Shown here: in pieces, positions 1 through 23,637 of the stretch
Layout: the number at the start of each line of letters is the position of its first letter
Position numbering within the stretch: the stretch's first letter is position 1
IMG/VR virus record: IMGVR_UViG_3300035422_000155
DNA from: an uncultured virus (IMG/VR IMGVR_UViG_3300035422_000155)
Taxonomy: Duplodnaviria > Heunggongvirae > Uroviricota > Caudoviricetes
Direction: 5' to 3' (one strand)
Length of the DNA: 64,000 nt
Notes under the pieces: model-generated
What the model saw: the letters and a program-made list of their open reading frames with translations, nothing else
The model's database searches: none
What the model was told of the DNA's origin: nothing
Program-made: the position numbers and the translations under genes

Positions 1-513
1 GCGGGGGTCCAGGAGGCGGGCAGGATTCTGGTGGTGGGCAACAAGGAGGCCCAGCGGAAGATGGTTTTGGAACTGGGGATGGAATCGGGGGACTACTGTG
101 ACAGCAGGACTCAGGATCCGGGTCAGTGGATCCGGGAGCGGACCGGCGGCCTGGGGGCGGATGTGTTCTTTGAGTGTGTGGGAAAGAATGAGACGGTGGC
201 CCAGGCGGTGGAAAACACTGCTCCAGGGGGGCGGATCTGTCTCATGGGAAATCCTGCCTCCTCCATGGCTTTGGAGATGGAAACCTATTGGAAAATTCTG
301 CGCCATCAGCTGCGGATCACGGGAACCTGGAACTCTTCGTTTACCCATGGGGCGGATGATGACTGGAACTACTGCATGGAACGTCTTGGGGCGAAGCGGG
401 TGGATCCCGGCAGGCTTATCACTCACAGATATTCTCTGGAGGAGCTGCATCGGGGGCTTCATATTATGCGGGATAAGACCCAGGATTATATTAAAATTAT
501 GACAATGTTTTGA
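1..513 (+). CDS. Zn-dependent (MDR) polyol/polyol-phosphate dehydrogenase, 5'-partial
   Basis: Frame open from base 1; GADVFFECVG, GGRICLMG, LITHRYSLEE..KIM C-terminal MDR motifs. Confidence 0.8.
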   Translation, partial: AGVQEAGRILVVGNKEAQRKMVLELGMESGDYCDSRTQDPGQWIRERTGGLGADVFFECVGKNETVAQAVENTAPGGRICLMGNPASSMALEMETYWKILRHQLRITGTWNSSFTHGADDDWNYCMERLGAKRVDPGRLITHRYSLEELHRGLHIMRDKTQDYIKIMTMF

Positions 514-626
514 ACTTGGCGTACATCTTTTTTCGGCACAGTTCTAAGGGCGGGAACGGGAAGATATCCGGCGGAGGAATGCCGTCGGACAGGAAATTCC
601 GCAGGCAGGAAAGGGATGGTTTCAAG

Positions 627-700
627 TTTTTTGGATCTGTTTTTTTGGATTTGGTTTTTCGGATCTGATATATCGGATCAGGTATATCGGATCCGGTTTT
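627..700. repeat. Imperfect 14-bp-period tandem repeat with GGATY core, 5 units
   Basis: GGATY at 633, 647, 661, 675, 689. Confidence 0.7.
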
Positions 701-745
701 AAGAATATGATTTAGGGCGCGTACAGTGCCCGGCAGGGGGCAGGA

Positions 746-2089
746 ATGAGAAATTTTCAGAAGAAGCAGTGCCTGGAGACCATAGAAGTGCTCAGTGAGG
801 CACATGGGGAGATTGTGAAACTGATTGAGAATAAACGGGTTCAGGGCGCGGCAGAGCTTATGGAGCAGTGTCAGCAGGGGGCCATAGGTATCGGCACTCT
901 GGTTGACAGTACGGAGGGGGAGGGGACGGAGACGGTCCGCTGCCTGGAGGAGTACTGCGAGGTTCTGTACCAGTTCTGTGAGAAGCTTCTGGAGGGAGCT
1001 TCCGTGAATACATGGCAGATGCAGAAAAAGCTCAGAAAACTTCTGGTGCGGGTGGAAAATTCCATCAACCATGAGATTCGGATTCAGAGGGAAGTGGTGT
1101 TTCTGCCTTATAAAGCTTCCATGTGGGATTCTCTGGAGTCTGTGTGGAAGGCGGCGGATGAAGATCCGGACTGCAGGGCACTGGTTATCCCTATTCCCTA
1201 TTATGACAAGAATCCTGACGGTTCTTTCGGGGAACTGCACTATGAGATTGCCCAGTACCCGGAGGAAGTGCCGGTGATGGGCTATGAATCCTATGATTTT
1301 GAGGCCAGACACCCGGATGTTATTTTCATTCACAACCCTTATGATGAGGGAAATTTTGTCACCAGTGTGCCTCCGTTTTTTTACTCTAAAAACCTGAAGC
1401 AGTTTACAGATAAGCTGGTCTATATTCCCTACTTTATCCTGGCCGAGATCGACCCCTCCGATAAGGAGGCAGTGGAAGGAATGGAGCATTTTGTCACCAC
1501 TGCAGGGGTGATGAATGCGGACCGGGTGGTGGTGCAGTCGGAGGCCATGCGGCAGATTTATGTGGATGTGCTCACCAGGCACACAGATGAGAGTCTTCGG
1601 CCTACATGGGAGAAAAAGATACTGGGACTGGGCTCCCCCAAGGTGGATCGGGTCTGCGGTCTGCGGAGAGAGGACTTTGAGCTGCCGGAGAGCTGGGACA
1701 GGCTGATTCAGAGGGAGGATGGCAGCCGCAGAAAAGTTATATTCTACAATACCAGCGTGACGGCCCTGCTGAAGGACAGTGAGGCCATGATGAAAAAGAT
1801 CAAGGAAAACCTGCAGATTTTTGAGGAGAACCGGGAAGATGTGGTGCTGCTGTGGAGGCCCCATCCGCTGACGGAGGCTACGCTTGCATCCATGCGTCCG
1901 GAGCTTATGGGGGAGTATGGGGAGATGGTGTGCAGGTACAGAGAGGCTGGCTGGGGCATCTATGATGACTCCCCCAGCATGGATCGGGCCATAGCGGTGA
2001 GCGACGGCTACTACGGCGACTGGAGTTCCATTGTGTGGCTGTATCAGAAAACAGGGAAACCTATTATGATACAAAATCCCAAACTCTGA
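746..2089 (+). CDS. CDP-glycerol glycerophosphotransferase (TagF-like) family protein
   Basis: FLPYKASMWDSLES, IHNPYD, LVYIPY, LGSPKVD, LWRPHP, YYGDWSS motifs. Confidence 0.7.
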   Translation: MRNFQKKQCLETIEVLSEAHGEIVKLIENKRVQGAAELMEQCQQGAIGIGTLVDSTEGEGTETVRCLEEYCEVLYQFCEKLLEGASVNTWQMQKKLRKLLVRVENSINHEIRIQREVVFLPYKASMWDSLESVWKAADEDPDCRALVIPIPYYDKNPDGSFGELHYEIAQYPEEVPVMGYESYDFEARHPDVIFIHNPYDEGNFVTSVPPFFYSKNLKQFTDKLVYIPYFILAEIDPSDKEAVEGMEHFVTTAGVMNADRVVVQSEAMRQIYVDVLTRHTDESLRPTWEKKILGLGSPKVDRVCGLRREDFELPESWDRLIQREDGSRRKVIFYNTSVTALLKDSEAMMKKIKENLQIFEENREDVVLLWRPHPLTEATLASMRPELMGEYGEMVCRYREAGWGIYDDSPSMDRAIAVSDGYYGDWSSIVWLYQKTGKPIMIQNPKL

Positions 2090-2176
2090 GGGAAATTTTT
2101 GTATTTCTTATCTGGCGGGCAGTTTGGGAAAAGACGGTTCAGGATAGCCTATTTGTCTTGGGCCAAGGGGGCGGTC

Positions 2177-2671
2177 ATGGGAGAGTACACGATTGTGCCG
2201 ATGAGAACAGATGAAGAAATCAGCGGTAAGGCGTTTGTGCATTTTCAGTCCTGGCATGAGACCTATGAGGGTCTGGTGGATGGGGAATATATGAAGACGG
2301 TGACACTTGAACGCTGTGAACAGATTGCCCGTGCATGGAGAGATAATCTGCTGGTGGCGAAGGATGGGAATAAGGTTATTGGCTTTGCGGGATATGGCAG
2401 ATATCGGGATGAAACCATGGCGGAATATGGTGAGATCTTTGCGCTCTATGTTCTGCGGGCATACCAGGGCAGGAAGGTGGGAATTGCACTTATGAATGAG
2501 GCGGTGGAAAGGCTTGCCGCCCACCCTGCAATCTGTCTCTGGGTGCTGAAGGGGAATGAGAAAGCGATAAGATTTTATGAAAAATATGGCTTTCGTTTTG
2601 ACGGCACAGAGCAGGAAATACTGCTTGGAACGCCCTGCATAGAGCAAAGGATGGTGTTACAGCGTTTTTGA
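2177..2671 (+). CDS. GNAT family N-acetyltransferase
   Basis: EIFALYV..YQGRKVG..LM and N..AIRFYEKYGF; ATG 2177 chosen as start. Confidence 0.85.
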   Translation: MGEYTIVPMRTDEEISGKAFVHFQSWHETYEGLVDGEYMKTVTLERCEQIARAWRDNLLVAKDGNKVIGFAGYGRYRDETMAEYGEIFALYVLRAYQGRKVGIALMNEAVERLAAHPAICLWVLKGNEKAIRFYEKYGFRFDGTEQEILLGTPCIEQRMVLQRF

Positions 2672-2967
2672 AGACTCTTTCTATAAAGTGTTTTTGTCAC
2701 GGAAAAATCGGTGGTTCAGGACTTCATGAATCGTTGCCAGCTCCAGCATTTTGGAACTGTGCTTTTAACAATTCCTTAGCCTCTGGCAGGGAGTCAGTCG
2801 CGGACAGCAGGGCCATATGCTCTGGGGCTGGCTATAGTTTAACATTTCAGGGCCTGGTTTGTCTAAACCAGGTTTTTTTGTCTGTGTGATTTTCAAATCT
2901 AAGCTTTGAATTCTAAATTTATAAATTTAAGTTCTGAATTCCCAATTTTCATATTTAAATTTGAAAT

Positions 2968-3630
2968 CTAAAATTTCAGTTCCCGAATATTCTGCAGGGT
3001 TTCGCCATAGGATTCTTTTTTTCCGAAGAGCAGTGTGGTGCCCAGCACAAACCCTTTCACTCCCTTGGGGGCATATTCCAGAATCTTGTCCGCACTGCAG
3101 GCGCCGTCCCAGCAGATCTCAAAGTCCATATCTTCTTTTAGGGCCAGCAGTTTGGTGATCTTTTTACCCACATAGGGCAGGTACATCTGTCCGGCATTTC
3201 CGGGGTTCACGGACATCACAAGCACTTTTCTCACAATGCGAAGAAGCTCCATTACCGTCTCCACAGAAGTGCCGGGATTGATTGCAATACCGGGAATCAT
3301 CCCTGCGTTGATGACTTTCTGCAGGGTGGTGGAAGGATGGTATTCCGCCTCCGGATGGATATATACCGTGTCGCCCTTACGAAGACACCCTAAAAAGATA
3401 CCGATATTATTGCAGGGGTGCTCTATCATCAAATGCACGTCCACAGGCTTTTTTGTGGCCATAGTGATGTACCGCAGATCGTTCAGGGACATGGCAAAGT
3501 TCGGCACATACCGCCCGTCCATGATATCTATATGGAAAGAGTCTATTCCTCCCTCCTCCAAGGCCTTTACTTCTTTTTCAAGATTGCCATAGTTGGCGCA
3601 CATCATTGACGCCATCAGCTCAAATTGCAT
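2968..3630 (-). CDS. rpe: Ribulose-phosphate 3-epimerase family (Rpe/AlsE-like)
   Basis: FHIDIMDG.YVPN, DVHLM, MSVNPG, DG motifs; RBS GAAGGAG before ATG 3630. Confidence 0.85.
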   Translation of the reverse strand: MQFELMASMMCANYGNLEKEVKALEEGGIDSFHIDIMDGRYVPNFAMSLNDLRYITMATKKPVDVHLMIEHPCNNIGIFLGCLRKGDTVYIHPEAEYHPSTTLQKVINAGMIPGIAINPGTSVETVMELLRIVRKVLVMSVNPGNAGQMYLPYVGKKITKLLALKEDMDFEICWDGACSADKILEYAPKGVKGFVLGTTLLFGKKESYGETLQNIRELKF

Positions 3631-3895
3631 ATAAATTCTCCTTCCGCAGTTTAGGAACCAGCCTTTTTTCGTTTTCTTCACTATGTATGAATGCTGTTAT
3701 ATGCTCATCAAAGCATAAATACATGGAAACTGCGGAGGGACGCCATGTATTGTGATTGCTGTGAAGAAGAGAGTAAAACAACACGAAATAAAATAAAGCA
3801 ACAGCCGATATACAGCACATCCCAGCTGGTGCTTCTTGATGTGGGTATTCGTAGAATAACTATTTCTACGAAACCTCTCTGGCGCAAAAGCCACT
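3631..3895 (-). promoter_or_regulatory. Long structured 5' leader of the epimerase gene with an anti-SD segment
   Basis: 3727-3740 complementary (13/14) to RBS region 3639-3652; further hairpins at 3718-3751, 3816-3843, 3848-3872. Confidence 0.55.
3848..3873. repeat. 26-bp dyad site, left copy (exact inverted repeat of 4273-4298)
   Basis: TTCGTAGAATAACTATTTCTACGAAA; 9-bp arms around a 7-bp spacer. Confidence 0.9.
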
Positions 3896-3901
3896 GTACT
3901 C

Positions 3902-3930
3902 ATTATATATACCGTCAAATAATTTGTCAA
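3902..3930 (-). promoter_or_regulatory. Consensus sigma70/SigA promoter pointing to the epimerase gene
   Basis: Minus strand TTGACA-17bp-TATAAT, perfect match. Confidence 0.85.
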
Positions 3931-4100
3931 TCACTTTTCAGGAATTAAGTTTTCAAGTAATTTCTGGCAGAATATTAAAGATATCGACAATAAATTATTC
4001 TAAAACTGTACAAACACTTTCTCTATCGACATAGGGATCCAGTTTCTTAACTTGTCAGAGAAAGTTTCTGATCAGAGAGGGCCTGAAAAAATTTTATTCG

Positions 4101-4232
4101 CCGTCAAAATTCTGGTCAAGGAAATGTCCTGGCTCTGTCTGGAAAAGGCGCAGAAAACAAGCTCTGCGGAGGGTGAGACGGGCGAAAAGGCGGTTCTTTC
4201 ATAAAGGTATTTACCGTCAAAATTCTGGTCAA
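4101..4232. repeat. 19-bp direct repeat CCGTCAAAATTCTGGTCAA (4101-4119, 4214-4232), related to 3912-3930
   Basis: Exact duplication; minus strand reads TTGACC-17-TAAAAT and TTGACC-17-TACCTT. Confidence 0.8.
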
Positions 4233-4272
4233 ACAAGCTTTGGGTGCAGAAAATATCAGGTTTGCGGCAGGA

Positions 4273-4298
4273 TTTCGTAGAAATAGTTATTCTACGAA
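4273..4298. repeat. 26-bp dyad site, right copy
   Basis: TTTCGTAGAAATAGTTATTCTACGAA, the reverse complement of 3848-3873. Confidence 0.9.
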
Positions 4299-4353
4299 AT
4301 TATACTGGAAGTCCTGGAGAGATTTATCGGGTGACAGAGGGTGGAAAAGATTT

Positions 4354-5679
4354 ATGGCCCAGGAGACAATATACAAGACAGTATATCAGTATAACAAGGA
4401 ACCGATTTCTGTCAGGGATATGGCAAGGCTGCAGGAGATTGCGGAAGATTGCAGAAAAGTTCGCAATTTTGTGTATGACCGGTATGGAGGTATAGGGGGG
4501 CTCCCCAAGATTTATCCAGGCTATACGGTGCAGAATGAAATGACCAAAAGCGGGCTGCGGGAGAGGCTGGGACTTCCATCGGTGTTCTTTTACCTCTCTA
4601 TCTTTGATGCTTTGGGTGATATTAAAAGCCAATGGACCCGTATCAAGAGCCGGATAGAGAAGAACATTCAGGTAAATGCAGAGCTGACTGCAGAAGACAG
4701 ACATTATTTGCGTTTTGTGATGAAACAGAGCCGCTGCTTTGAAGCGGTCCTGGCGGGAGGAGAACCGGATCTTCGAGGGGACTGGAGGGAGACTTATGGG
4801 GCCCTCAGAGCAGGTGTGGATGCATACAGGCTGGACCAGTATCTGCGCAGGCAGGTCAGGAGACACCTGGTAAAACCTCACACGGATACGGCGGATGGAT
4901 TTACCATTTCGCCCAAGGGATACAGATATGCCGATCATGGGATATACATTTCCATGAAAGAGAGTCGTCAGAGACTTTTCATTCTGCTCACGGATAACAA
5001 TCGCTACTCCAGGCAGATATACCTTCGGCTTTATCCGAAGGAAGGCAACATTACCTTGAATGTGCCGGTGGAGGTAAAGCAGAGGCACCCTAGAGGATAT
5101 GAAGGGGAAATCGGCCTGGCCCTGGGGCTTCGGTGCATGTTTGTCACTCATACGGGGCAGATGTATGGGGAGAAATATTTTGAATATCAGTCCGCGCTGA
5201 CGGAATATGTCAGGGAGCGGCTGTCCCGTCACCGCAGAAATGCGGAAAATAATCCGGGCATGAAAAAATATACTGCGGGAAAGAGGCGGCTGGAGACGGC
5301 GCTGCACGCTTATGTGAATGCGGAGATCAACCGGCTGCTGGAGACAGAAAAGCCCGGAGTGGTGTATATTCCAAAACTTCCTGGTATGGTGAAAGCAGGA
5401 GTGAACCGGAAAGTGAATGCGGGTCTGAACATGTGGCAGAGAGGCTATGTGAAAAAGAGGCTGGAACGCAAGTGCAGGGAACGGTCCGTGGAGCTTGCGG
5501 AGGTGTTTGGAAAGGGTATCAGCACCGAATGCTGCCGCTGCGGGGCGGAGGGCAGGAAGGAAGGGGATATATTCCGCTGCAATTCCTGCGGACAGGAGAT
5601 GCCGGAGAGACAGAATACAGCTGTAAATGTGCTGAACCGGGGAAAAAAGCTGAAGGCCGGGAATGCTGGTGAGACTTGA
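4354..5679 (+). CDS. TnpB/Cas12-like protein with inactivated RuvC (nuclease-dead, TldR-like), 441 aa
   Basis: C-terminal Zn ribbon STECCRCG..FRCNSCG then ERQNTAVNV; RuvC-I IGLALG (D>A), RuvC-II VVYIPKL (E>P), RuvC-III (D>Q); no tnpA adjacent. Confidence 0.8.
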   Translation: MAQETIYKTVYQYNKEPISVRDMARLQEIAEDCRKVRNFVYDRYGGIGGLPKIYPGYTVQNEMTKSGLRERLGLPSVFFYLSIFDALGDIKSQWTRIKSRIEKNIQVNAELTAEDRHYLRFVMKQSRCFEAVLAGGEPDLRGDWRETYGALRAGVDAYRLDQYLRRQVRRHLVKPHTDTADGFTISPKGYRYADHGIYISMKESRQRLFILLTDNNRYSRQIYLRLYPKEGNITLNVPVEVKQRHPRGYEGEIGLALGLRCMFVTHTGQMYGEKYFEYQSALTEYVRERLSRHRRNAENNPGMKKYTAGKRRLETALHAYVNAEINRLLETEKPGVVYIPKLPGMVKAGVNRKVNAGLNMWQRGYVKKRLERKCRERSVELAEVFGKGISTECCRCGAEGRKEGDIFRCNSCGQEMPERQNTAVNVLNRGKKLKAGNAGET

Positions 5680-5742
5680 GGCGTGGACGGCAAAGGATAG
5701 GCCGGAAAAAATTTGAATTAAGAGTTCAGAATAGATGTGATG

Positions 5743-6136
5743 ATGAAGCAGGTAAGGTTTGAATTGAGAAATAGATGACACAGGTTCATTATGAAGGATT
5801 CCGTGGATGAATGCGCCGTCAGGCTGTATTTGACCAGAACCGGAAACGGGAACAGGACTGCGGGAAAATTCTTTTGATAGCTTAAGGCAGGTACTGTCTG
5901 AGCAGATAAAAACAAGAACGGCATTGGAAGCCGTCCCTTTTGGGGACGGGTATTGGGTATGCCAGGACCCATGGGAACTCAGGCGCGGGATTCCGCAGAT
6001 GCAGCAGGTAATGGATGTGCATGGCACAGAAATGGCAGGCAGCATTCTGAGAAGTACCGGGAGCGAAGCGGGCAGGCGGGGAGTATGCAGGAGATTTTCA
6101 AACGCAGAAAGAAGAGTCTGTCAGCATCACCTGTAA
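5743..6136 (+). pseudogene. Degraded gene remnant, possibly GNAT-like
   Basis: Protein-like segments MKQVRFELRNR*HRFIMK.. and FDSLRQVLSEQ..GYWVCQD..RRGI broken by a stop and frameshift. Confidence 0.3.
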
Positions 6137-6341
6137 GGGTGACAAAATGTGCCTTATTATAATATATGGAATAGTCTTATGAATTGAATCATGATTGCTG
6201 ATATGTTAGACAAAATGGATAGTCAAGATCTGTTGATGATACCAGTAGTATGACAGCGGGTTTATACACAGGGAGGAATTTAGGGAGAATAGTTTCCTCC
6301 CCAGTTTGTGTACGTGCCATAGCGCGTGGATGGGGGCAGCT

Positions 6342-8903
6342 GTGAGGAAGGCGCAGAAAAAACAGGCGGAAGAGTTTACGGACTTATTGGAACAGGTCCA
6401 TGGGGAAATCAGAAGGCTGATAGAGACAGGCGGTGCTCTGGCAGCCATGGATCTGTTGGTACAATGTCAGGAAGGAGCTGTTCAGCTGGGAGAATTGATA
6501 GAGAAGACAGAAGGGGATGACTGTACAGTTATTCCCGTGTTGGAGAATTACTGTGAGCTGGCTTATCATATCCATGAAGAACTTTCTGCTGGAGTGGGAA
6601 TCACCCCCAATAAAATCCATAAAAGGCTGCACAGGCTGTTGATTCAGATCAAAAACAGGATACGAAATGACATCAAGGTGCGGTATGAGATGGTATTCCT
6701 TCCATACAAGGCATCCATGTGGGATTCCCTGGAGAGTGTGTGGCAGGCTGCGGATGCTGATCCGAACTGTGACGCCTATGTGGTTCCCATTCCTTATTAT
6801 GACAAAAATCCAGACGGTTCCCTGGGAGTGTACCATTATGAAGGAAACAATCTTCCCTCTTATGTGCCGGTAGTGCATTATGACACATATTCCTTTGAGA
6901 ACAGGAAACCGGATGCAATATATATCCATAATCCATATGATTATGCAAATCATGTCACAACAATTGAACCCAGATTTTATTCGGAAGAATTGAAGAAATA
7001 TACAGAATGCCTGGTCTACATCCCCTATTATGCCACCTCCGGCGGTATGGCCGAGGGGCAGATGCAGTGCCCGGCTTATTATCATGCGGATTATATCATC
7101 ATACAGGCAGAGAAATACCGCCAGTTTTTTGATCCGGCGCTGCCGGCGGAGAAACTGGTGCCGCTTGGTTCACCCAAGTTTGACAGGGTTATCCATATGT
7201 GTGAAAACCCACCCCAGCCGCCGGAGGAGTGGAAGGAGAAAATGGCGGGCAGGAAGGTGTATTTCTATAATACCAGTATCCAGGGGATGCTGGGGAACAC
7301 GGAGGCTTTCTTAAAAAAGATGGAGTATGTGTTCAATACCTTTCGGGGGAGGGAGGACGTCTGCCTGCTGTGGAGGCCCCATCCGCTGCTGGAGTCCACT
7401 TTTGAATCTTTGAGACCCATGTATAAGCCTGCGTATGATGCCCTGAAACATGGATTTATCAGTGAGAATCTGGGGATATATGATGAAACACCGGACATAG
7501 AAAGTACAATTGCGCTCTCGGATGTCTATATCGGAGATGGGGCCACAAGCGTCACATCGCTTTTTGGCGTTGCGGGGAAACCGATTTTTGTTTTGAATAA
7601 TAGTATTCACACATTGCCGGAGAAGGATGACTGGCGAGGGGAAGTGGTTAATCCTGCGTTTGATATGTGGGGAAATGACAGATTCCAAGTGACCAGGAAT
7701 AATCAATTGTGGTTCTCTGAGAATAATGATTATCACTATCATTTTTATATGGATCTGGAGACGGGTTATTCTTCAGGAGGATATTATATAAGAGCCATTG
7801 AGATAAAGGATAAAATTTATGTGCTTCCCGGTAATGCACAGAACCTGCTTATTGTAAAAGATAAGAAGATTAAAAAAATCAAGTTTAAGTATCAGATCAC
7901 ACAGCCAGGAGCCTTTTGTGGTTCTTGCTATAACGAAAAGTACATTTTTCTGATCCCATACAAATATCCGTTTTTGATTCGTTTTGATCTAGTAACGGAA
8001 GAAATCTATTATGTGGACGGAATAAAACAGTTTAATGTGAGAGATGTGGATGGAAAGTGGCAGGTGGGAGATGCGAACTATTATGAGAATGAGATAGTTT
8101 TTTCTTCTCCAGTAGATAATAATTTGCTGTTTCTTGACATGGATACATTAAAGACAAGGGTGCTCAATAGCAATTCAAAATGTAGTGTTGGAATTCAAGG
8201 TATTGTACCTGATGGGGATGATTTATGGCTCTTGCCTCTGAAGGGGATGACTATATCATGTTGGAATCCAAAAACTGGGGCAATAAGGGAATACGGAGAT
8301 TTACCCCAGAACTTTAAATCCATAAAATGGCCTTATGAACTGGAATGTGAGGAACGACCCTTTGGCGGAATAGCATTTTCCAGAGAAGGAAGCAGGGAAA
8401 ATATTGTCATTTCTCCCTTGTGGGGAAATATGTATTTGTCTCTTGACAGGGAGACAGGAAAAATGGAGAAATGGGATCTTCCAATATTGTGCGCAGATCG
8501 TAAAAAAAATGGATATTTTGGAACTGCAGGTATGGGCTATTTTGTTATTACAAGATTGCAGCGTGGGAAAGCCCGATGCCGGTTATGGTATGTGCCAGAG
8601 AGAAAATTTTACAATGTTAATATTGATACAAAAGAATTTGACGAAGTAGTTGTAAAATTTGACTATGAAGAACTAAAGGAATATGCCTCAGGTTTTATGG
8701 AGGAATCAGAGTGGCTGCAGTACAGTTTGAATGAAAGTGCATTTAACTCTCTGAAAAGCCTTCTGGATGAAAAAGTAATCGGAAATCAGTTTGACAGGGA
8801 AAGACAATTAAGGGCATTCTCTAAAATAAATGCGGATACAGCAGGAACATGCGGGAAACGAGTATATAGTTTTGTGGGGGAGAAAATCGGAAGGATTCTC
8901 TAG
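6342..8903 (+). CDS. TagF-like glycerophosphotransferase family protein with C-terminal beta-rich extension
   Basis: N-terminal ~430 aa paralogous to 746-2089 (FLPYKASMWDSLESVW, LWRPHP); GTG 6342 aligns with the paralog start. Confidence 0.7.
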   Translation: MRKAQKKQAEEFTDLLEQVHGEIRRLIETGGALAAMDLLVQCQEGAVQLGELIEKTEGDDCTVIPVLENYCELAYHIHEELSAGVGITPNKIHKRLHRLLIQIKNRIRNDIKVRYEMVFLPYKASMWDSLESVWQAADADPNCDAYVVPIPYYDKNPDGSLGVYHYEGNNLPSYVPVVHYDTYSFENRKPDAIYIHNPYDYANHVTTIEPRFYSEELKKYTECLVYIPYYATSGGMAEGQMQCPAYYHADYIIIQAEKYRQFFDPALPAEKLVPLGSPKFDRVIHMCENPPQPPEEWKEKMAGRKVYFYNTSIQGMLGNTEAFLKKMEYVFNTFRGREDVCLLWRPHPLLESTFESLRPMYKPAYDALKHGFISENLGIYDETPDIESTIALSDVYIGDGATSVTSLFGVAGKPIFVLNNSIHTLPEKDDWRGEVVNPAFDMWGNDRFQVTRNNQLWFSENNDYHYHFYMDLETGYSSGGYYIRAIEIKDKIYVLPGNAQNLLIVKDKKIKKIKFKYQITQPGAFCGSCYNEKYIFLIPYKYPFLIRFDLVTEEIYYVDGIKQFNVRDVDGKWQVGDANYYENEIVFSSPVDNNLLFLDMDTLKTRVLNSNSKCSVGIQGIVPDGDDLWLLPLKGMTISCWNPKTGAIREYGDLPQNFKSIKWPYELECEERPFGGIAFSREGSRENIVISPLWGNMYLSLDRETGKMEKWDLPILCADRKKNGYFGTAGMGYFVITRLQRGKARCRLWYVPERKFYNVNIDTKEFDEVVVKFDYEELKEYASGFMEESEWLQYSLNESAFNSLKSLLDEKVIGNQFDRERQLRAFSKINADTAGTCGKRVYSFVGEKIGRIL

Positions 8904-8966
8904 TTTTGGATAGGACGTACTCGATTTTTCTTTCTTTAGTTGGAAACATCGGAAAAGGGGAAATTT

Positions 8967-10319
8967 GTGGGAAAAGGGATTATAAAAGTAATTACATATG
9001 GTACATTTGACCTTTTCCATGAAGGGCACTATCGGTTGCTTCAGAGGGCAAAAGCTCTGGGAGACTATTTGATTGTAGGTGTCACTACGGAGACATATGA
9101 CAGGGCCAGGGGGAAACTGAATGTGGTGGATTCCCTGGCTACGCGTATTGAAAACGTGAAGAAGACAGGTTTTGCAGATGAGATCATCACTGAAGAGACA
9201 CAGGGCCAGAAGTTTAATGATATTAAAAAATTTCACGTTGATATTTTCACGGTGGGCTCTGACTGGACTGGTACCTTTGACTATTTGAAGGATTATTGCC
9301 AAGTTATTTACCTGGAACGGACAAGAAACATTTCCAGCACCATGTTACGGGAACAGAAACAGCAGATACAGCGGATAGGAATTATAGGAACCGGCAGGAT
9401 TGCCGGCAGGTTTCTTGTGGAGGCAAAACTTGTCAGCGGATGCAGTGTACAAGCAGCTTATAATCCTCATCCTGGAAGTGCGGCAAAGTTCGCTCAAAAG
9501 TGGGGGATTGACGCATACTTGGACATTGAAGATTTTTTTTCTGTTGTTGATGTGGTGTACATCGCATCTCCCCATGAGACTCATTACAATTACATTAAGG
9601 CAGCTTTGGAACATGGGAAACACGTGCTGTGTGAAAAGCCCATGGTGATGCAGGGAATCCAGGCGGAAAAACTGTTCAAATACGCGAAGGAACGGGGATT
9701 GATACTTTTTGAAGGAATCAAGACCGCATATTGTCCGGGATTCAGCAGGCTCCTGGGAATTGCATGCAGTGGGACGATTGGTAGTGTCCGAAATGTGGAA
9801 GCCTGTTTCACGAAGCTGGAGGCACCAGACACGAGGGAGCTGACAGATCAAAAGTACGGCGGTAGCTTTACGGAACTTGGAAGTTACTGCATGCTGCCTG
9901 TGCTGAAACTTTTTGGGAAGGATTACGAGAAACTGGAATTTGAGACAATCAGGGGAGAGAACGGGCTGGATCTTTTTACTAAAATATCTCTTCGTTACTT
10001 TGGAGGAATTGCCACTGCAACCTGCGGATTGGGGGTAAAGTCGGAGGGCAGACTTCTGATAGCTGGTACAAAGGGATACATTGTGGCAGAAGCACCTTGG
10101 TGGAAGACCGCCTATTTTGAGGTACACTATGAGGAGCCTGGAAAGGTGGAAAAATATTCCGAAAGTTTTCTGGGGGATGGCCTGCGTTATGAAATCAGCG
10201 ATTTTTTGTCCATGATAAACGGGAGTAGTGACAATGGTTTTAAACTGACCCGGGGTGAATCGATTGCACTGGCTGAGATTATGGAAAAATTTCTGGAAAC
10301 GGAAGACCGCATATTGTGA
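8967..10319 (+). CDS. TagD-like cytidylyltransferase fused to Gfo/Idh/MocA oxidoreductase
   Basis: TYGTFDLFHEGH and RT..ISST, then IGIIGTGRIA and HVLCEKP. Confidence 0.85.
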   Translation: MGKGIIKVITYGTFDLFHEGHYRLLQRAKALGDYLIVGVTTETYDRARGKLNVVDSLATRIENVKKTGFADEIITEETQGQKFNDIKKFHVDIFTVGSDWTGTFDYLKDYCQVIYLERTRNISSTMLREQKQQIQRIGIIGTGRIAGRFLVEAKLVSGCSVQAAYNPHPGSAAKFAQKWGIDAYLDIEDFFSVVDVVYIASPHETHYNYIKAALEHGKHVLCEKPMVMQGIQAEKLFKYAKERGLILFEGIKTAYCPGFSRLLGIACSGTIGSVRNVEACFTKLEAPDTRELTDQKYGGSFTELGSYCMLPVLKLFGKDYEKLEFETIRGENGLDLFTKISLRYFGGIATATCGLGVKSEGRLLIAGTKGYIVAEAPWWKTAYFEVHYEEPGKVEKYSESFLGDGLRYEISDFLSMINGSSDNGFKLTRGESIALAEIMEKFLETEDRIL

Positions 10320-10352
10320 AGATGAAAAGGCAGGAATGTAGGAGGTGCGAAG

Positions 10353-11135
10353 ATGAAAATATGGGCGCATAGAGGATGTAGTCAGATGTATCCGGAAAAT
10401 ACTCTACTTGCATTTGAGAAGGCGGCATCGCTGAAAAACCTGACTGGTATAGAATTGGATATACAGCTCACAAAAGATGGGGAAATCGTGGTTATCCATG
10501 ATGAGCGCGTGGACAGGACTACAGAGGGAACAGGATATGTGAGGGATTTTACCCTTTCCCAGCTGAGAAAGCTTCACATTTATGCGGACAATCATCCGAC
10601 TCAACAGGTGCCAACGATGGAGGAAGTCTTGGTTCTGTTGAAACCTGATTTGAAATCCGGTTTGCGAGATGCAAAACAAAATCTGGCACAGAAGGACGCA
10701 GGAGCCAGATCAGGGCTGATTCTGAATATAGAACTGAAAAACAGCATTTGTTTTTATGAGGGGATGGAAGAAAAAATCGTGGAGATGGTTCATAGACATG
10801 GTTTGCAGAGTGCAGTGGTATACTCCACTTTTCATGCAAAGTCGCTGGCTAAACTCAGAAGATTGGATGCAGATGCGGAGCTAGCCATTTTGGATACCAG
10901 GGTTTCGGACTGTCTGTATAAGGCAAAGGGCGGATGTGGTGCGTCGGCACTGCATCCCTTCTGGCAAGGTATTGATCTTCCGCCAGAAGAGCTTGTGGGT
11001 ATAACAGTGCGTGCCTGGATGTCAGGACATCTGTATCCGGAAAAACCAACAGGAACTAAACTGGATTTGACATACTTGGAAAAACAGGGAATTACAGATG
11101 TTATTTTGAATGAACCAGAGGTATATGTCATGTGA
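10353..11135 (+). CDS. Glycerophosphodiester phosphodiesterase family
   Basis: WAHRG..PENT, IELDIQLTKDG..VVIHD, NIELK. Confidence 0.9.
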   Translation: MKIWAHRGCSQMYPENTLLAFEKAASLKNLTGIELDIQLTKDGEIVVIHDERVDRTTEGTGYVRDFTLSQLRKLHIYADNHPTQQVPTMEEVLVLLKPDLKSGLRDAKQNLAQKDAGARSGLILNIELKNSICFYEGMEEKIVEMVHRHGLQSAVVYSTFHAKSLAKLRRLDADAELAILDTRVSDCLYKAKGGCGASALHPFWQGIDLPPEELVGITVRAWMSGHLYPEKPTGTKLDLTYLEKQGITDVILNEPEVYVM

Positions 11136-11221
11136 AAGTCAAAATAGTTACAGGGCGGCCCTATTATGACAACAGGAGATGATTTGACAAAAAGTAGCAT
11201 GAAGAGAGGGACATAAAGCAG

Positions 11222-12464
11222 ATGCAGCAGAATAGTGAAGATTGGATTGAACATATAGCTGAACAGGTACACTTGCATTATAAGGGGCGGAAAGTTGTCA
11301 TATGGGGTAGCTATGGGGTGGCGGATTCCATTAAAGGCAGCTTAAAAGAAAAGTTTGGAATTGACACCGCGTTTTATGTGGATGGTGATAAAAGCAAAGT
11401 TGATGGCAAGATGGTATTATCGCCAGAATATCTGGACGGAAAGTCAGGACAGTATTATGTTGTTGTACCTATAGCATTTTATTCTGCGGTAAAGGAACAA
11501 TTGGTTCAGGGGGGTACCGTAAGGATATAGATTACTTTTACTTTTGTGATTGTGTCCTGCGGCAGGAAGCGGATTATTATGAAGATGCACATGGAAATAA
11601 GATAATTGGAAATTATCAAGGTTTAAAATTTGCGTTTTCGGGGTTTCAGTCTGTGATAAAAATTGGAGAAGGAGTTCAATTTTGTGAAACCAGCATATAT
11701 CTTCATAATGGGGTAGAAGTTGTGATTGAGAGAGGAGTTCAATGTCACGAAAACCATATTTGTCTCTATAATGAAGCTAAGATTATTATTGAAGATGGAG
11801 TAGAGTTAAGAGAAAATCAGATAACAATGAATCAATTTTCAAAAGTTGCAATTGCCAGAAAAGCTGTACTGAAAAAGAGTCATATTACTATTGGAAAGAA
11901 TCCATATTTTATGACGACGATGGAGGACATATATATTTCGAGGTGGAGAAGGGGGCGGAATGTCATATTGGTGTTCAAGGAAAATTTATTGGATCAGGAA
12001 GCGTATTTTTGGGAGAAGATACACTGTTGAAGGTCGGAGGTGGCTTTAGCATAGGAGATAATTATCGGATAACCTTAAATCCCCATACCAGCATTATTAT
12101 AGGAGATGATTGTATGGCATCTTATGATGTTGTTATACGTAGTAATGATGGACATTCAATATTTGACGTGTGCTCGAAGGAAAATATAAATTCTTCATAC
12201 GAGATCAGCAGAGAGAGAAATGTGATGATAGGAGATCATGTTTGGCTGGGACAGCGTACAGTTATTTTATATTATACACAGATTGGGGATGGAAGCATTA
12301 TAGGGGCAAACAGTCTGGTTAAGAGTAAAATTCCCAACAATTGTATAGCAGTGGGGTGTCCTGCAAAAGTAATCAAGAGAAACATTGCCTGGAGCAGGAA
12401 AGAGGGGGCAGAACACATTGATGAGTGTGGAAAGAACTACGTTCATTATACAGAAGAAATATAA
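11222..12464 (+). pseudogene. Left-handed beta-helix acyltransferase split by two frameshifts
   Basis: Three fragments join if one base is added at G6 11509-11514 and one at ~11895; C-terminal IGDHVWLG..IGANSLV..AVGCPAKVI. Confidence 0.75.
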
Positions 12465-12509
12465 ATGAAGAAAACATGAAAGATATAAGCAAAAAGGAAT
12501 GCAGAATCT

Positions 12510-13346
12510 ATGAATGTGTCAGAATCAAAGCAGTACGATATATCTGCAGAGGAATTGAAACAGATTCAACTTATCCAACAGGATTTGATAAAAGAGGTGG
12601 TACGAATCTGTAAAAAATGTGATATTCATTTCAATATGGTGGGCGGCACCATGTTGGGGGCCGTCCGACATAAGGGATGTATACCATGGGATGATGATGC
12701 GGATATTGGTTTTCTGCGAAGTGAGTATGAAAAATTCAGGAAGGCATGTCGGACAGAGTTAAACCATGAGAAATACTATATGCAGGATTTGCGTGATACA
12801 GAAGGGTATCGCTGGGGGTATGGAAAATTACGCAGAAAAAATACTAAATTTGTGCGTCTGGGACAGGAATTTATGCCTTATGACCAAGGAATATCCATAG
12901 ATCTTATGCCGTTTGATAATGTTCCGGACGAATGGATTTTGAGGAGGTTTCATTTCTTTCGCTGTTTTTTGTACCGCAAAATTTTCTGGTCAGAAGTGGG
13001 GAGCAGGACGGAAAGTAAGAGACTGACAAGGATGGTATATAAATTGCTGAAGATGGTACCTATGAAAAGTGTGATAAGAAGTTACCAGCGGTTTATTGAT
13101 GCCGGACAGAGAAAAAAGAGCCGATTGGTTCGGATACTCACTTTTCCCACACCCAAAGGGGTATATGGATATGATAGAAAATGGTATACTCATTTGACAA
13201 AATATCGTTTTGAAAAAATGATGCTGCCTGGAGCCCGGGATTATGATGGCTATTTAAGGGTGAAATATGGAAACTATAAGGAATTGCCGCCGGCTGAGAA
13301 GCGCAAAACGCATCCAGTCTCGAAATTGGAACTGCCAGGGGAGTGA
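12510..13346 (+). CDS. LicD family phosphotransferase
   Basis: GGTMLGAVRHKGCIPWDDDAD, IDLMP, YL..KYGNY. Confidence 0.9.
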   Translation: MNVSESKQYDISAEELKQIQLIQQDLIKEVVRICKKCDIHFNMVGGTMLGAVRHKGCIPWDDDADIGFLRSEYEKFRKACRTELNHEKYYMQDLRDTEGYRWGYGKLRRKNTKFVRLGQEFMPYDQGISIDLMPFDNVPDEWILRRFHFFRCFLYRKIFWSEVGSRTESKRLTRMVYKLLKMVPMKSVIRSYQRFIDAGQRKKSRLVRILTFPTPKGVYGYDRKWYTHLTKYRFEKMMLPGARDYDGYLRVKYGNYKELPPAEKRKTHPVSKLELPGE

Positions 13347-13352
13347 TGGGGA

Positions 13353-13787
13353 TTGGGAGCAGAAAAGAGATATAAAGTAGGATATACTGACGGGGTATAT
13401 GATTTGTTTCATGTGGGTCATCTGAATATGATTCAGGCTGCGAAGAAGTATAGTGAATACTTGATTGTGGGAGTGCATGGAGACGATGTTGTGGAGGGAT
13501 ACAAGAATCGCAGGCCCATTATTCCGGAAGAAGAGCGCAGGCGGATTATCGGGGCGATTAAAGGTGTTGACAGAGCAGAAATCAACCGTTTCAGGGACAA
13601 GTTAAAGCTATGGGAGTTATACCGTTTTGATGTAATATTCATTGGAGATGACTGGAAAGGAACAGACCGTTGGAATCAATTTGAAAAACAGCTGGAGAAA
13701 GTTAATGTTGATGTGGTATATGTCCCCTATACAAAAGGAATATCCACTACAGAGATTCGCGAAAAAATTATGGGGGAATTGGAATGA
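13353..13787 (+). CDS. Cytidylyltransferase (TagD-like)
   Basis: GVYDLFHVGHLN, GDDW, YTKGISTT. Confidence 0.9.
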   Translation: MGAEKRYKVGYTDGVYDLFHVGHLNMIQAAKKYSEYLIVGVHGDDVVEGYKNRRPIIPEEERRRIIGAIKGVDRAEINRFRDKLKLWELYRFDVIFIGDDWKGTDRWNQFEKQLEKVNVDVVYVPYTKGISTTEIREKIMGELE

Positions 13788-14824
13788 AGCCTAAAAAGAA
13801 AATAGCTCTTACAATGGGTGATCCAGCAGGAATAGGACCTGAGATAATTATAAAAGCACTGAGCCATGTAGAAATCTACCAGAAATGTATTCCTATTGTG
13901 GTAGGAGACCAGGCGGTGTTGGCAGATGCGGTTCGATTTTGTGGCTTGCCGCTAGAAATACAGGAGATTTCAGATGTGGAGGAAGCCAGGGGAGAATTTG
14001 GAAAGATAGACTTGATTAACTTGAAACAGGTTATGGCGGGAGCTTGGGAATACAAGAGAAACAGTGCGGAATGTGGGGAGGCATCTTTTCAGTATGTAGT
14101 ATATGCCATTCGGCTGGCGATGGAAAAAAAGGTACAGGCAGTGGTGACGGCGCCCATTAACAAAAAATCTCTCAATATGGCAGGGTACCATTACAGCGGA
14201 CACACAGAAATATTTGCGGAATATACCGGAACAAAAGATTTTGCAATGCTGCTTGCCAGCAAAAGTCTGCGTGTGATCCATGTTTCAACACACTGTTCTC
14301 TGCGAGAAGCCTGCGACAGGGTTAAAAAGGACAGAATACTGAAGGTTATCCGTCTGGCACATGAGGGGATGCAGCAACTTGGATGTCTGCATCCACGTAT
14401 TGGGGTTGCAGGCTTAAACCCGCATTGTTCTGAAAATGGTCTGTTTGGAACTGAAGAAGAGTGTGAGATTTTACCTGCTATAGAAGAAGCCAAAAAGGAA
14501 GGGCTTCACGTTGCTGGACCAGAGTCACCGGATACTGTTTTTGTAAAATGTCAGGCAGGACAATATGATATTGTTGTGGCAATGTATCATGATCAGGGAC
14601 ATATTCCGTTAAAGCTGAGTGGTTTTAAGTATAATCTTCAAAAGGACAGATACGAATCAGTGAGCGGGATTAATTGTACAATCGGTCTTCCGATTGTGAG
14701 AACTTCAGTGGACCATGGGACGGCTTTCGGGAAGGCTGGGGAAGGCCGGGCCAATGAGGAGAGTATGGTGGATGCTGTTTTTGCGGGAGTAATGATGGCA
14801 GAAAACAGGAACATATATGGTTAA
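13784..14824 (+). CDS. pdxA: 4-hydroxythreonine-4-phosphate dehydrogenase (PdxA) family
   Basis: TMGDPAGIGPE, GHTE, LNPH, MYHDQGHIPLK, RTSVDHGTAF. Confidence 0.85.
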   Translation: MKPKKKIALTMGDPAGIGPEIIIKALSHVEIYQKCIPIVVGDQAVLADAVRFCGLPLEIQEISDVEEARGEFGKIDLINLKQVMAGAWEYKRNSAECGEASFQYVVYAIRLAMEKKVQAVVTAPINKKSLNMAGYHYSGHTEIFAEYTGTKDFAMLLASKSLRVIHVSTHCSLREACDRVKKDRILKVIRLAHEGMQQLGCLHPRIGVAGLNPHCSENGLFGTEEECEILPAIEEAKKEGLHVAGPESPDTVFVKCQAGQYDIVVAMYHDQGHIPLKLSGFKYNLQKDRYESVSGINCTIGLPIVRTSVDHGTAFGKAGEGRANEESMVDAVFAGVMMAENRNIYG

Positions 14825-14852
14825 AATATAGTCAGTGAAAAAGGGAAATAAA

Positions 14853-16010
14853 ATGGAGAATAAAAGGATTTTAAATAAACTGTCACCTGAGTGGAATGAG
14901 ATCAGTGAAATTGTGGTATATGGTTTTGGAAGAACTGCAGTCAGGAATGTGGATAAGCTGGCAGAAGATTTTCATATTTCTTTAATTATAGATAAGGATC
15001 CTCAAATACATGGAAAGCAGTACGGCGATTGCAGAGTTCAGACGTTTGATGAAGTAAAAGAGAACTTGCCGGGGAAAAAAGTAGTCGTAGCAACAAGTTC
15101 TGTGGCTTATACGGATATTTCCAGACAGCTGCAAAGTCTGGGGATGAAAGAGCATATAGATTTCTGTCGTCTGAAAGATTTTATGGCGGAGTGGTATTGG
15201 AAAAACCGCCATCAAGTGTGTCTAAGCCAGACGTTTTCATCTGTGACATCACGCTGTACATTTCGGTGTAAACATTGCAATTTCTTTGCTCCATATTTTA
15301 AAGAAGGCATTCATTATGATTATGATGAAATTGATATTTTAAAAGATTTCGAGGGCTACTTCAAGGTCGTAGATTATGTTGCCAGTTGGTCCATCATAGG
15401 AGGAGAACCGCTTATAAATAAGCGGCTGCCTCAAATTATTGAGAGTGTATTTGAAAAATATGGGAATCATATCGGCTATATACAGATTATTTCTAATGGA
15501 AGTCTGGTGCCGGATAAAGAATTATTGGATGTAATGAAAAAAACTAATGCGCGTATGCGTTTGTCGGATTATACTCATGTACTACCATATCAAAAGAAGC
15601 TTGAAGAAGTAAAGCAGTGTCTGAAGGAAAACGGTATTCCATATGATATGAGTGTATATGAACAGTGGTTTGACTTGGGTATAAATACAAGTGATATACC
15701 AGAATTTTCGGGAAGTACCGCTGACACAGCACGCCACATGAGATTATGTGCAACAGGCTGCCATCAGTTAAATGATGAAAAATTCTTTTTTTGTGGACAA
15801 GGATTTGCGCGTACCAAAAGAGGATTTTGTTCTCTGCAGGAGGGGGATTGTATTGACCTGACTGCCTGCACCGGAAGCATAGAGGATAAGGAGACAATGC
15901 TGAGTTTTTGCATGGGTTATCCACCAAAGGGATATATCAGTGTATGCAAGACTTGCTATGGCATGGGAAGCGATAACAATCGTATTGTAGGAGTAGCGGA
16001 ACAGATGTAG
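14853..16010 (+). CDS. Radical SAM protein with N-terminal Rossmann-like domain
   Basis: CTFRCKHC (CxxxCxxC), GGEP, ISNG; C-terminal Cys residues. Confidence 0.85.
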   Translation: MENKRILNKLSPEWNEISEIVVYGFGRTAVRNVDKLAEDFHISLIIDKDPQIHGKQYGDCRVQTFDEVKENLPGKKVVVATSSVAYTDISRQLQSLGMKEHIDFCRLKDFMAEWYWKNRHQVCLSQTFSSVTSRCTFRCKHCNFFAPYFKEGIHYDYDEIDILKDFEGYFKVVDYVASWSIIGGEPLINKRLPQIIESVFEKYGNHIGYIQIISNGSLVPDKELLDVMKKTNARMRLSDYTHVLPYQKKLEEVKQCLKENGIPYDMSVYEQWFDLGINTSDIPEFSGSTADTARHMRLCATGCHQLNDEKFFFCGQGFARTKRGFCSLQEGDCIDLTACTGSIEDKETMLSFCMGYPPKGYISVCKTCYGMGSDNNRIVGVAEQM

Positions 16011-16045
16011 AGAGTAAATATGCTTTGGCGTGGAGGGTGGACTAG

Positions 16046-17245: not shown

Positions 17246-17274
17246 GTTTGAATGAATTTGCAGGGAGAAGAATT

Positions 17275-18291: not shown

Positions 18292-18368
18292 CATGAATAA
18301 ACAGATCAACGGAGTTGCAATGCTTGTTTTATAGAGCATGAAACGACGGCGGTTTGAGGAGGAGAATA

Positions 18369-19673: not shown

Positions 19674-19686
19674 AGAAGGTGTGAAC

Positions 19687-20202: not shown

Positions 20203-20285
20203 ACACTAATTTGTATACGGGAAAAGTGCTGGAAGCTGCAGGTGTACGTATATTGAAGTGAACAGCACAAGGTGGGAGACAGGAA

Positions 20286-21167: not shown

Positions 21168-21189
21168 CAGCAGAGGCGGGGAATAGGGA

Positions 21190-22023: not shown

Positions 22024-22054
22024 GATTCCAATAAAAGTATTGGAGGGAAGACAT

Positions 22055-22816: not shown

Positions 22817-22843
22817 ATTAATGGTTGACGAGGGCAAGAGGGG

Positions 22844-23602: not shown

Positions 23603-23637
23603 TGTTGATACTGGCAGAAAATGCGGGGAGGAAGGAT

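Follow-up and report, generated by a model that had tools for sequence, protein, structure and literature searches.

A catalytically dead TnpB-like protein, a structured RNA and an invertible promoter at the head of a glycan operon of mouse-gut Lachnospiraceae

What is a TnpB-like gene doing at the head of a set of glycan genes when its nuclease site is lost and no transposon surrounds it? The question is posed by a stretch of 64,000 nucleotides (nt) filed as an uncultured virus under IMG/VR record IMGVR_UViG_3300035422_000155, which is analysed here at its full length and called the window. A preliminary description of its sequence had pointed to an intact open reading frame (ORF) of 441 amino acids (aa) with a TnpB-type C-terminus inside a surface-glycan island, and had supposed that the product may be a domesticated RNA-guided DNA binder controlling glycan or flagellin modification genes. 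Our analysis identifies the gene as a domesticated, catalytically dead TnpB resembling the TldR proteins, and not as a transposon gene. It also adds what that description did not contain: an invertible DNA segment (inverton) upstream of the gene, a tyrosine recombinase, a structured RNA downstream, and the equivalence of the gene's position with that of NusG-family factors in sister operons.

The protein and its family

4354-5679, + strand: nuclease-dead TnpB-like protein of 441 aa (P0001), from ORF translation, profiles, structure model and alignment.

The ORF translates without a stop, as had been described. The only Pfam domain to reach its gathering score on P0001 is the Cas12f1-like TNB domain PF07282 (27.2 bits; gathering cut-off 26.3), the NCBIfam model guided_TnpB (NF040570) stays below its cut-off (55.6 bits; cut-off 100), and the closest solved structure by sequence is the ISFba1 TnpB 8iaz (E 8e-5). 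An AlphaFold2 model made from a 56-sequence alignment that included distant relatives has a predicted local distance difference test score (pLDDT) of 92.5 and a predicted template-modelling (TM) score of 0.78; an earlier input of 27 close homologs had given a pLDDT of 53. Foldseek ranks Cas12f and TnpB as the best matches of this model (E 9e-13 to 1e-8), among them Cas12f 8j1j (E 9e-13), ISDra2 TnpB 8h1j (target-normalised TM 0.67, root-mean-square deviation 5.6) and the solved dCas12f-guide RNA complexes 9n9c and 9n9m. At the level of the fold, P0001 has the build of the TnpB/Cas12f superfamily, with WED and REC domains and a split RuvC domain into which a Zn-ribbon TNB is inserted. The Zn-ribbon cysteines C393, C396, C409 and C412 (CxxC...CxxC, 393-412) are kept, again as described, and do not vary across the 27 family members.

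The RuvC triad (D-E-D) is a different matter. An exhaustive profile search returned 1672 proteins at E <=0.001, from which 50 full-length representatives were aligned with P0001 and five close homologs. In an outgroup of 37 distant relatives (P0154 to P0264), the Asp of motif I (GxDKG) and the Glu of motif II (xxExL) are both present in 37/37, and motif III (DADxNAA) has an Asp two residues ahead of the conserved Asn in 27/37; the five outgroup members scanned with guided_TnpB (P0154, P0164, P0168, P0192, P0210) score 84-117 bits, with P0154, at 117 bits, above the cut-off. The same columns in P0001 hold A256 (codon 5119), P340 (codon 5371, followed by K341) and, for the Asp pair of motif III, P417 (5602) and R419 (5608) within the segment P417-E418-R419-Q420-N421. 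The preliminary description had thus recognised all three replacements and had placed the first two exactly; the third, put at 5611, was one codon off, since the Asp equivalent is R419 at 5608, and 5611 encodes Q420, the residue preceding the conserved Asn N421. D-E-D is lost in all 27 close members and in 13 more distant members of the dead clade (P0123-P0146, P0270). Among the close members, the exceptions to the residues of P0001 are a Ser at the A256 position in one and a Lys at the R419 position in two, and no position of the first RuvC strand is acidic in the aligned dead-clade sequences. A search of 151 Lachnospiraceae genomes with P0154 for catalytically active close relatives returned only more dead-clade members. 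P0001 therefore does not carry the D-E-D of an RNA-guided endonuclease and, as far as its sequence can tell, is nuclease-dead by replacement of the triad. Elsewhere in the protein, residue 266 (window 5149-5151) is His in P0001 and Asp in at least 90% of the 27 family members (FVTD motif).

The family is abundant in Lachnospiraceae of the gut. A word-indexed search found 1469 relatives of P0001 among 8000 scored candidates (the total being 1469 or more), the best 120 of which are 67-99% identical to it. Relatives are encoded on 378 stretches of species-representative genomes, and the best 80 were analysed (L008-L087, L008 being the window). The copies are intact in 77 of these 80 loci; L059 is split, L065 ends at a contig end and L075 is shorter. 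The ratio of nonsynonymous to synonymous substitution rates (dN/dS) lies between 0.036 and 0.119 by the Nei-Gojobori method (68 evaluable of 70 pairs with >=80% aa identity, two having saturated dS), and 22 of 25 strain variants seen within the coding sequence (CDS) in contigs from RNA libraries are synonymous. Judged from these substitutions, the family is under strong purifying selection and not decaying. Occurrence is patchy (4/41 related genomes). Five genomes hold 2, 3, 3, 4 and 7 full-length copies (19 in total) with no internal stops, and these paralogs, being 50-73% identical to P0001, are not recent copies; each of them sits at a glycan locus. Some cassettes lie tens of kilobases (kb) apart (G043:C2 at 2.158, 2.188 and 2.215 Mb; G042:C1 at 5.589, 5.628 and 5.747 Mb), which suggests arrays of alternative phase-variable glycan loci. 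Cultured carriers are Acetatifactor muris DSM 23669, Schaedlerella arabinosiphila DSM 106076 and Sporofaciens musculi WCA-9-b2.

The gene does not have the marks of an IS200/IS605/IS607 element, for which an adjacent TnpA (Y1 or serine recombinase), defined ends and several near-identical copies would be expected. There is no recurrent tnpA-like neighbour across the 80 loci and, by Tandem Repeats Finder, no CRISPR-like array in window positions 1-12000, in line with the earlier observation that neither adjoins the gene. Domestication, as then proposed, is borne out by intact copies, low dN/dS, conserved synteny and the absence of D-E-D from the 27 close and 13 distant members; close homologs keeping D-E-D in insertion sequences (IS) at random loci, or a dN/dS near 1, had been named as signs to the contrary, and the opposite was found. 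A suggested affinity to the IS607-TnpB/Cas12n branch was not borne out: P0001 has no IS607_TnpB match, and active relatives reach only ~30-42 bits against a cut-off of 350. With active TnpB (ISDra2 8h1j/8exa, ISFba1 8iaz) the window protein shares the fold (TM 0.58-0.67, target-normalised), the Zn ribbon and a 3' RNA; it differs in having no D-E-D, no TnpA and no mobile copies, in its larger N-terminal half and in its NCBIfam score below cut-off.

The structured RNA and the invertible promoter

5783-6162, + strand: structured RNA scaffold in the omega-RNA position, with two insertions in the window, from conservation and covariation.
6163-6329, + strand: variable post-scaffold leader and putative guide region, with a hairpin at ~6272-6303; conservation stops at 6162.

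Between the stop codon of the dead TnpB gene and the next gene lies a spacer of 626 nt holding a region that is conserved in 66 of the 80 loci. This scaffold measures about 280 nt in most loci (range about 280-380 nt). Of the 56 loci in which both of its ends could be placed, 48 have the 5' end at -27 to +47 nt relative to the stop codon, most commonly at -8; its 3' motif is present in 69/80 loci, beyond which conservation ends abruptly (at 6162 in the window). RNAalifold, applied to 32 sequences, gives 56 pairs in 13 helices; 96.5% of the cells pair (38-47% in slid controls), compensatory changes affect both sides of 28 pairs (10-15 in slid controls), and 0 of 500 shuffles reached the observed pairing or covariation values. 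Rfam has no family match for the scaffold; a chance match to a snoRNA (E 0.08) was dismissed. The RNA and the protein go together: in a BLAST search of the five genomes, 12 of 12 scaffold matches lie directly downstream of a dead-TnpB homolog, and a scaffold hidden Markov model (HMM) is positive at 14/14 paralog loci and at 0/4 invertons that have no dead TnpB. Guide RNAs of TnpB and of TldR, the latter as described in 10.1101/2023.11.30.569447, have a sharp conserved 3' end followed by variable sequence, and an adjacent downstream scaffold with a conserved 3' junction is likewise found here; the protein may be supposed to bind this RNA. In one genome, two loci (L117 and L121) differ by exactly a 58-nt insertion at the scaffold boundary.

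Transcript data came from four metatranscriptome runs, belonging to four studies, in the form of contigs whose strand and level are unreadable and in which DNA carry-over is possible. Starting at 4274 or 4273, two contigs span the dead-TnpB gene and the RNA and end within the gene that follows (at 7000 and 6786); a third starts at 4280. Two others cover only the RNA: 5804-6336 (X18) and 5803-6160 (X19), the latter from a relative whose sequence diverges directly after 6160, at the scaffold boundary. The letters beyond the contig ends 5804, 6336 and 5803 are presumably Illumina adapter, an indication from two studies that the RNA has discrete ends at 5803/5804. The RNA-only contigs have depths of 30.5 and 62.9 and CDS contigs of the same runs 5-14, figures that cannot rank expression.

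3848-3873, no strand: left lox-like site (IR-L), a perfect 26-nt inverted repeat with 4273-4298.
3874-4272, no strand: invertible segment of 399 base pairs (bp) with three direct repeats of a promoter-like module (3906-3930, 4095-4119, 4208-4232).
3902-3930, - strand: sigma-70 consensus promoter TTGACA-17-TATAAT, 12/12 match, facing away from the gene (OFF).
4273-4298, no strand: right lox-like site (IR-R), 56 nt upstream of the start codon, inverted repeat of IR-L.

Each lox-like site consists of 9-bp inverted arms, TTCGTAGAA and TTCTACGAA, around an asymmetric 7-bp core. Sites of the loxP/FRT type, on which tyrosine recombinases act, have the same layout of inverted half-sites around a core. 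Inversion would bring the perfect promoter to ~4216-4244 on the + strand, leaving about 110 nt between it and the start codon. A script found a repeat pair with its right arm <=260 nt from the start codon in 66 of the 80 loci, with >=20 matching bases in 59; five of the remaining 14 have no upstream sequence. Three layouts occur: a segment of 1.4-2.6 kb that encloses the recombinase gene, a segment of 300-400 bp as in the window, and, in the most distant clade, one of ~100 bp with a different repeat. The upstream neighbour is a tyrosine recombinase (PF00589) in 41/80 loci, inside or beside the segment.

In 31 loci a perfect promoter marks one end of the segment, facing away from the gene in 19 and toward it in 12 (28 and 13 with weaker promoters included), and its direction is coupled to the orientation of the recombinase in all 22 loci where both could be scored. 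Homologs of the window's own segment lie in the + orientation at L065, L038 and L016 and in the - orientation at L044, L035, L030 and L015. Because homologous segments and promoters occur in both orientations across genomes, coupled to the direction of the recombinase, comparison gives direct evidence, at the level of sequence, that the segment inverts. The lox-like pattern is enriched in five genomes over a reversed-pattern control (8+8 vs 0 in the window's assembly, G046). One site on a different contig of that assembly (G046:C135:4523-4547) is identical to the window's, with the same asymmetric core, and a single site with one mismatch lies upstream of the paralog L032 (G046:C10:26330-26354); sites with a common core could allow recombination from one locus to another, so that several operons would share one promoter segment. 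The window's switch has no adjoining recombinase; a recombinase 73% identical to those linked to the loci is found on contig C22 of the same assembly, with no lox-like sites beside it. Two RNA contigs, from two studies, terminate precisely at 4273/4274 on the inner side of IR-R and leave no loose end there, a weak hint of either a two-orientation branch in the assembly graph or a transcript start; the contigs of the four runs do not cover 3796-4272, and this is not counted as evidence. Upstream of the homolog at L078, a perfect inverted repeat of 135 nt encloses a 109-bp segment (L078:1293-1671).

The layout points to co-transcription of the dead TnpB gene with the glycan genes, as the first cistron behind the invertible promoter, and the product may take part in their control.

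What the dead TnpB and its RNA may do

We tentatively favour, at somewhat less than an even chance, the reading that the dead TnpB is the operon's dedicated RNA-guided, DNA-binding transcription regulator, TldR-like and serving a phase-variable glycan operon. The tyrosine recombinase would flip the promoter between the lox-like sites; the dead TnpB and the structured RNA encoded after its stop codon, the first units transcribed, would form a ribonucleoprotein (RNP) complex. Since the gene and the RNA come first behind the invertible promoter, the complex would be made only when the glycan operon is ON. The sequence beyond the scaffold would serve as guide and lead the complex to a DNA target, where it might, for example, silence competing surface-structure loci while its own locus is ON, as FljA of the Salmonella Hin switch and UpxZ of Bacteroides silence competing surface loci. 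Guided DNA binding is proposed because, to our knowledge, every characterised nuclease-dead relative of TnpB or Cas12 (TldR, Cas12k, Cas12m, dCas12f) works by RNA-guided DNA binding, which makes this the default by homology.

The likeness to TldR lies in the lost triad, the missing transposase, the conserved link to a non-transposon gene and the downstream RNA scaffold with its sharp 3' junction. TldR proteins are defined by at least two mutated triad residues and a conserved non-transposon association, and the family has both, being associated with a TagF-like gene in 62/80 loci and with an inverton in 66/80. Nuclease-dead TnpB derivatives have come to be recognised only lately as a class of natural RNA-guided regulators. 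The TldR study reports 506 dead TnpB-like proteins, with three groups examined closely (10.1101/2023.11.30.569447), and another account speaks of only three characterised clades of nuclease-dead TnpB derivatives, its authors calling the others uncharacterised (10.64898/2026.09.22.753285). The present family is a separate one. Three family peptide motifs from the first 400 residues have 0 matches in five supplementary files, the TldR protein table among them, of version 1 of the TldR preprint, and the names Lachnospiraceae, Acetatifactor, Schaedlerella and Sporofaciens are absent from the supplementary files of that version. The clostridial TldR clade linked to csrA and flagellin (about 390 aa) is unrelated in sequence to the family, as far as its published members allow comparison. 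Its members adjoin csrA, unlike the dead-TnpB copies, which do so in 0/5 genomes: csrA is single-copy and lies on another contig or ~1 Mb away in 5/5. Flagellin-domain genes are near only 1 of the 19 copies, where the nearer one is ~10 kb distant. Two further differences are the much longer scaffold (about 280 nt) and the invertible promoter and tyrosine recombinase ahead of the gene; a third is that guide-target searches returned no target. The impression that the context was unfamiliar is upheld within these sources. A nuclease-dead TnpB/Cas12 lineage has also been exapted for non-cleavage roles in dCas12f-sigmaE, which carries out RNA-guided transcription (PMC13472631), and in Cas12k of type V-K CRISPR-associated transposons; unlike these, the dead-TnpB loci have no adjacent CRISPR array, sigma factor or transposition genes.

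Several observations weigh against guide-directed DNA binding. Of 20 positions, the putative guides match 12.48 in their own upstream regions and 12.39 in foreign ones, so that the own regions have no advantage, and cross-paralog guide matches are distributed alike within and between genomes. For four guides searched genome-wide there is no significant second site, guides of 9-11 nt (the length in oppF TldR) and targets outside the searched sequences being beyond these searches. One clade keeps its post-scaffold sequence even across divergent paralogs, and this sequence adopts a hairpin fold, so that here it does not have the look of a free guide. The next start codon follows 21-47 nt past the scaffold in about 20 of 68 loci. 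At L104, L105 and L106 (tandem loci of G043) and at L121 (G132), a second copy of the scaffold's 3' motif stands 25-55 nt further on, giving the look of repeat-spacer-repeat; at L121 this repeat is the 58-nt insertion by which it differs from L117. Sister invertons without a dead TnpB, taken up below, all begin with a NusG-family gene, and the position they share with the dead TnpB fits a role in elongation in cis at least as well as that of a regulator in trans. Of the RNA-guided regulator proposed at the outset, the structured RNA directly 3' of the gene has been found, and the guide targets have not.

Individual candidate matches were tried and set aside. The idea of a guide directed at the inverted repeats or the upstream region of its own locus was rejected, the own match being no better than foreign ones. 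The one 13-nt match, between the L084 guide and L071, falls within 5' leaders that are homologous to each other. The window's guide finds only itself at <=3 mismatches in 20 nt, and a 13/14 match of it falls within a coding region at chance level. A conserved 'GAGCC...' element gave counts equal to control, its extra match being another paralog locus; the L019 guide has one 17/20 match, without conservation in the sister genome; and the A-rich L031 guide has a match count near control.

The sister invertons are four (L125-L128), three in G043 (G043:C2 at 1.871, 1.889 and 2.300 Mb) and one in G044 (G044:C51 at 0.244 Mb), with the same type of lox-like site and no dead TnpB. The first recognisable gene is a NusG-family paralog in 4/4, preceded in three of the four by a small ORF (122-152 aa), and the biosynthetic genes that follow include DegT in 4/4; L125 also has Bac_transf, and L128 an HpcH/HpaI aldolase. 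At L128 the recombinase lies within the segment, with a collagen-repeat protein encoded upstream. The 80 loci, the 14 paralog loci and the window contain no NusG-like gene, so that the dead TnpB and the NusG paralog exclude each other from this slot; by gene order, the dead TnpB and its RNA occupy the place that specialised NusG paralogs hold in sister operons. A recurrent neighbour of 167 aa (cluster 3) was considered as NusG-like and rejected on testing.

This equivalence leads to the first alternative, an elongation device acting in cis, which we consider rather unlikely and nevertheless the most serious competitor. The dead TnpB would here sit on the nascent leader RNA and help RNA polymerase to read through the ~22-kb glycan operon, or would stabilise or license the mRNA, with no guide-directed DNA binding; lambda N on nut, the EAR element, and LoaP or UpxY with leader elements are analogues. 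Apart from the exclusive NusG slot, it accounts for the RNA being placed, without exception, in the leader and ahead of every biosynthetic gene, whichever genes those are, for RNA-library contigs that run unbroken from the dead-TnpB gene into the next gene, and for the empty searches for targets in trans. Against it, we know of no TnpB/Cas12 relative that acts in this way, the bilobed DNA-targeting fold and the Zn ribbon are wholly kept, the distance from scaffold to next start codon varies from about 20 to >400 nt across loci, and the positional argument comes from 4 comparison loci in 2 genomes. Riboswitch-like control of the ribosome-binding site was also considered and rejected, there being no constant spacing between scaffold and start codon.

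It is improbable that the RNP is instead an accessory of the DNA switch, which at or near the lox-like sites or the recombinase would bias or lock the orientation of the inverton. The gene does adjoin the right recombination site in 66/80 loci and has a tyrosine recombinase as upstream neighbour in 41/80, and the post-scaffold sequences of, for example, L062, L066 and L081 resemble by eye the short-type repeat motif; but the putative guides match their own repeats and upstream regions at background level, invertons with the same sites work without a dead TnpB in the same genomes, and many loci, the window included, have no local recombinase. That the gene is a decaying or still selfish IS remnant without host function, as its patchy occurrence, its several copies per genome, source annotations reading 'transposase' and a cassette boundary that coincides with the scaffold 3' end between close relatives (e.g., L019 vs L031) might suggest, is very improbable given a dN/dS of about 0.08 with 77/80 copies intact, the family-wide loss of the triad, the conserved place between inverton and glycan genes with no recurrent TnpA, and same-genome paralogs only 50-73% identical to P0001.

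Returning to the proposed RNA-guided regulator, the arrangement has parallels in two well-known switches. In Bacteroides, capsule loci consist of an invertible promoter followed by UpxY, a NusG-like antiterminator, and UpxZ, a trans-inhibitor; LoaP is a specialised NusG paralog in Firmicutes. Genomes with the dead TnpB likewise contain several phase-variable glycan loci, and in each of these a locus-specific regulator is the first gene after an invertible promoter; the same Lachnospiraceae genomes also have operons in the order inverton, NusG-like gene, polysaccharide genes. The dead-TnpB loci differ in having a dead TnpB and RNA in the regulator slot, a Firmicutes host and a recombinase that is often inside the segment. 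In the Hin switch of Salmonella, hin and a promoter lie in the invertible H segment, the promoter driving fljB and the repressor gene fljA. A recombinase gene and an outward promoter in one invertible segment, with a regulator among the first products, are common to both, whereas the recombinase is here a tyrosine and not a serine enzyme, the controlled genes are glycan and not flagellin genes, and the regulator derives from TnpB.

It is possible, though we regard it as doubtful, that a TnpB-derived RNP has replaced the NusG-family factor (of UpxY or LoaP type) as the locus-specific regulator heading phase-variable glycan operons of Lachnospiraceae, be it as an antitermination or licensing device or as an RNA-guided silencer that leaves one locus at a time active. 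If true in either mode, this would for the first time connect OMEGA/TnpB-derived RNPs with phase variation by DNA inversion. The position in the NusG slot raises the question of whether an RNA-guided protein substitutes for, or complements, processive antitermination and locus exclusion. In literature on nuclease-dead TnpB together with phase variation or invertible promoters, or on tyrosine-recombinase invertons of Lachnospiraceae, we did not find the arrangement described; one account of invertons has those of Bacteroidales as its subject (PMC13648699). The family, its RNA and their regulatory context appear to be new, the TldR-like kind being already known. What distinguishes the family is its large, well-defined RNA partner and its wiring into a site-specific DNA inversion that would control surface or protein glycans, a different regulatory logic. 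Invertons of the lox-like type with tyrosine recombinases would control many glycan loci in Firmicutes gut commensals and are relevant to interactions with phages and the immune system, and since cultured isolates carry the family, experiments are feasible.

The glycan operon and the rest of the window

6330-8903, + strand: first biosynthetic gene, N-terminal half TagF-like (a distant PF04464 relative), recognised through downstream homologs.
8940-28746, + strand: co-oriented glycan genes, from Pfam matches.

The genes flanking the dead TnpB are glycan genes, and the glycan-island context described earlier is therefore correct. For the neighbourhood survey, ORFs were called in the 80 loci and clustered. 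The longest ORF of the first biosynthetic gene begins at 6306 with TTG and encodes 865 aa, and a homolog of this 6306-8903 product lies downstream on the same strand in the 62 loci mentioned above. The protein itself has no match in Pfam, NCBIfam or the sequences of the PDB; the TagF assignment, a lead only, comes from atlas look-alikes of the paralog at 746-2089, 16-42% of whose members carry PF04464. That paralog of the TagF-like N-terminal half (447 aa) lies upstream of the switch and is followed by a GNAT acetyltransferase (2099-2671); a tandem repeat of 14/28-nt units at 622-700 stands ahead of it.

The genes at 8940-28746 encode cytidylyltransferases, GDPD, LicD, PdxA-like, radical SAM, aminotransferase, MptE/Maf-like and NeuB proteins, as well as CMP-sugar synthetase-like, DegT, GT2 and GT1 proteins. 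Flippase, polymerase, ABC-exporter and Bac_transf families are absent from the Pfam matches of this interval, and the gene set would fit cytoplasmic protein glycosylation (e.g., of flagellin) or a teichoic-type polymer. Other genes that recur downstream across the 80 loci are DegT, epimerase, NeuB, cytidylyltransferases and GT2.

The remainder of the window (28999-64000) resembles a mobile element or prophage. It is headed by a tyrosine integrase with an N-terminal Zn ribbon (28999-30234, - strand), which is 21% identical to the switch recombinases, and contains three DUF6353 genes and genes for a cell-wall hydrolase, a DUF5906 protein of 1457 aa, an N6 methylase and LemA, together with a homolog of the anti-Thoeris protein Tad3 at 54373-55398.

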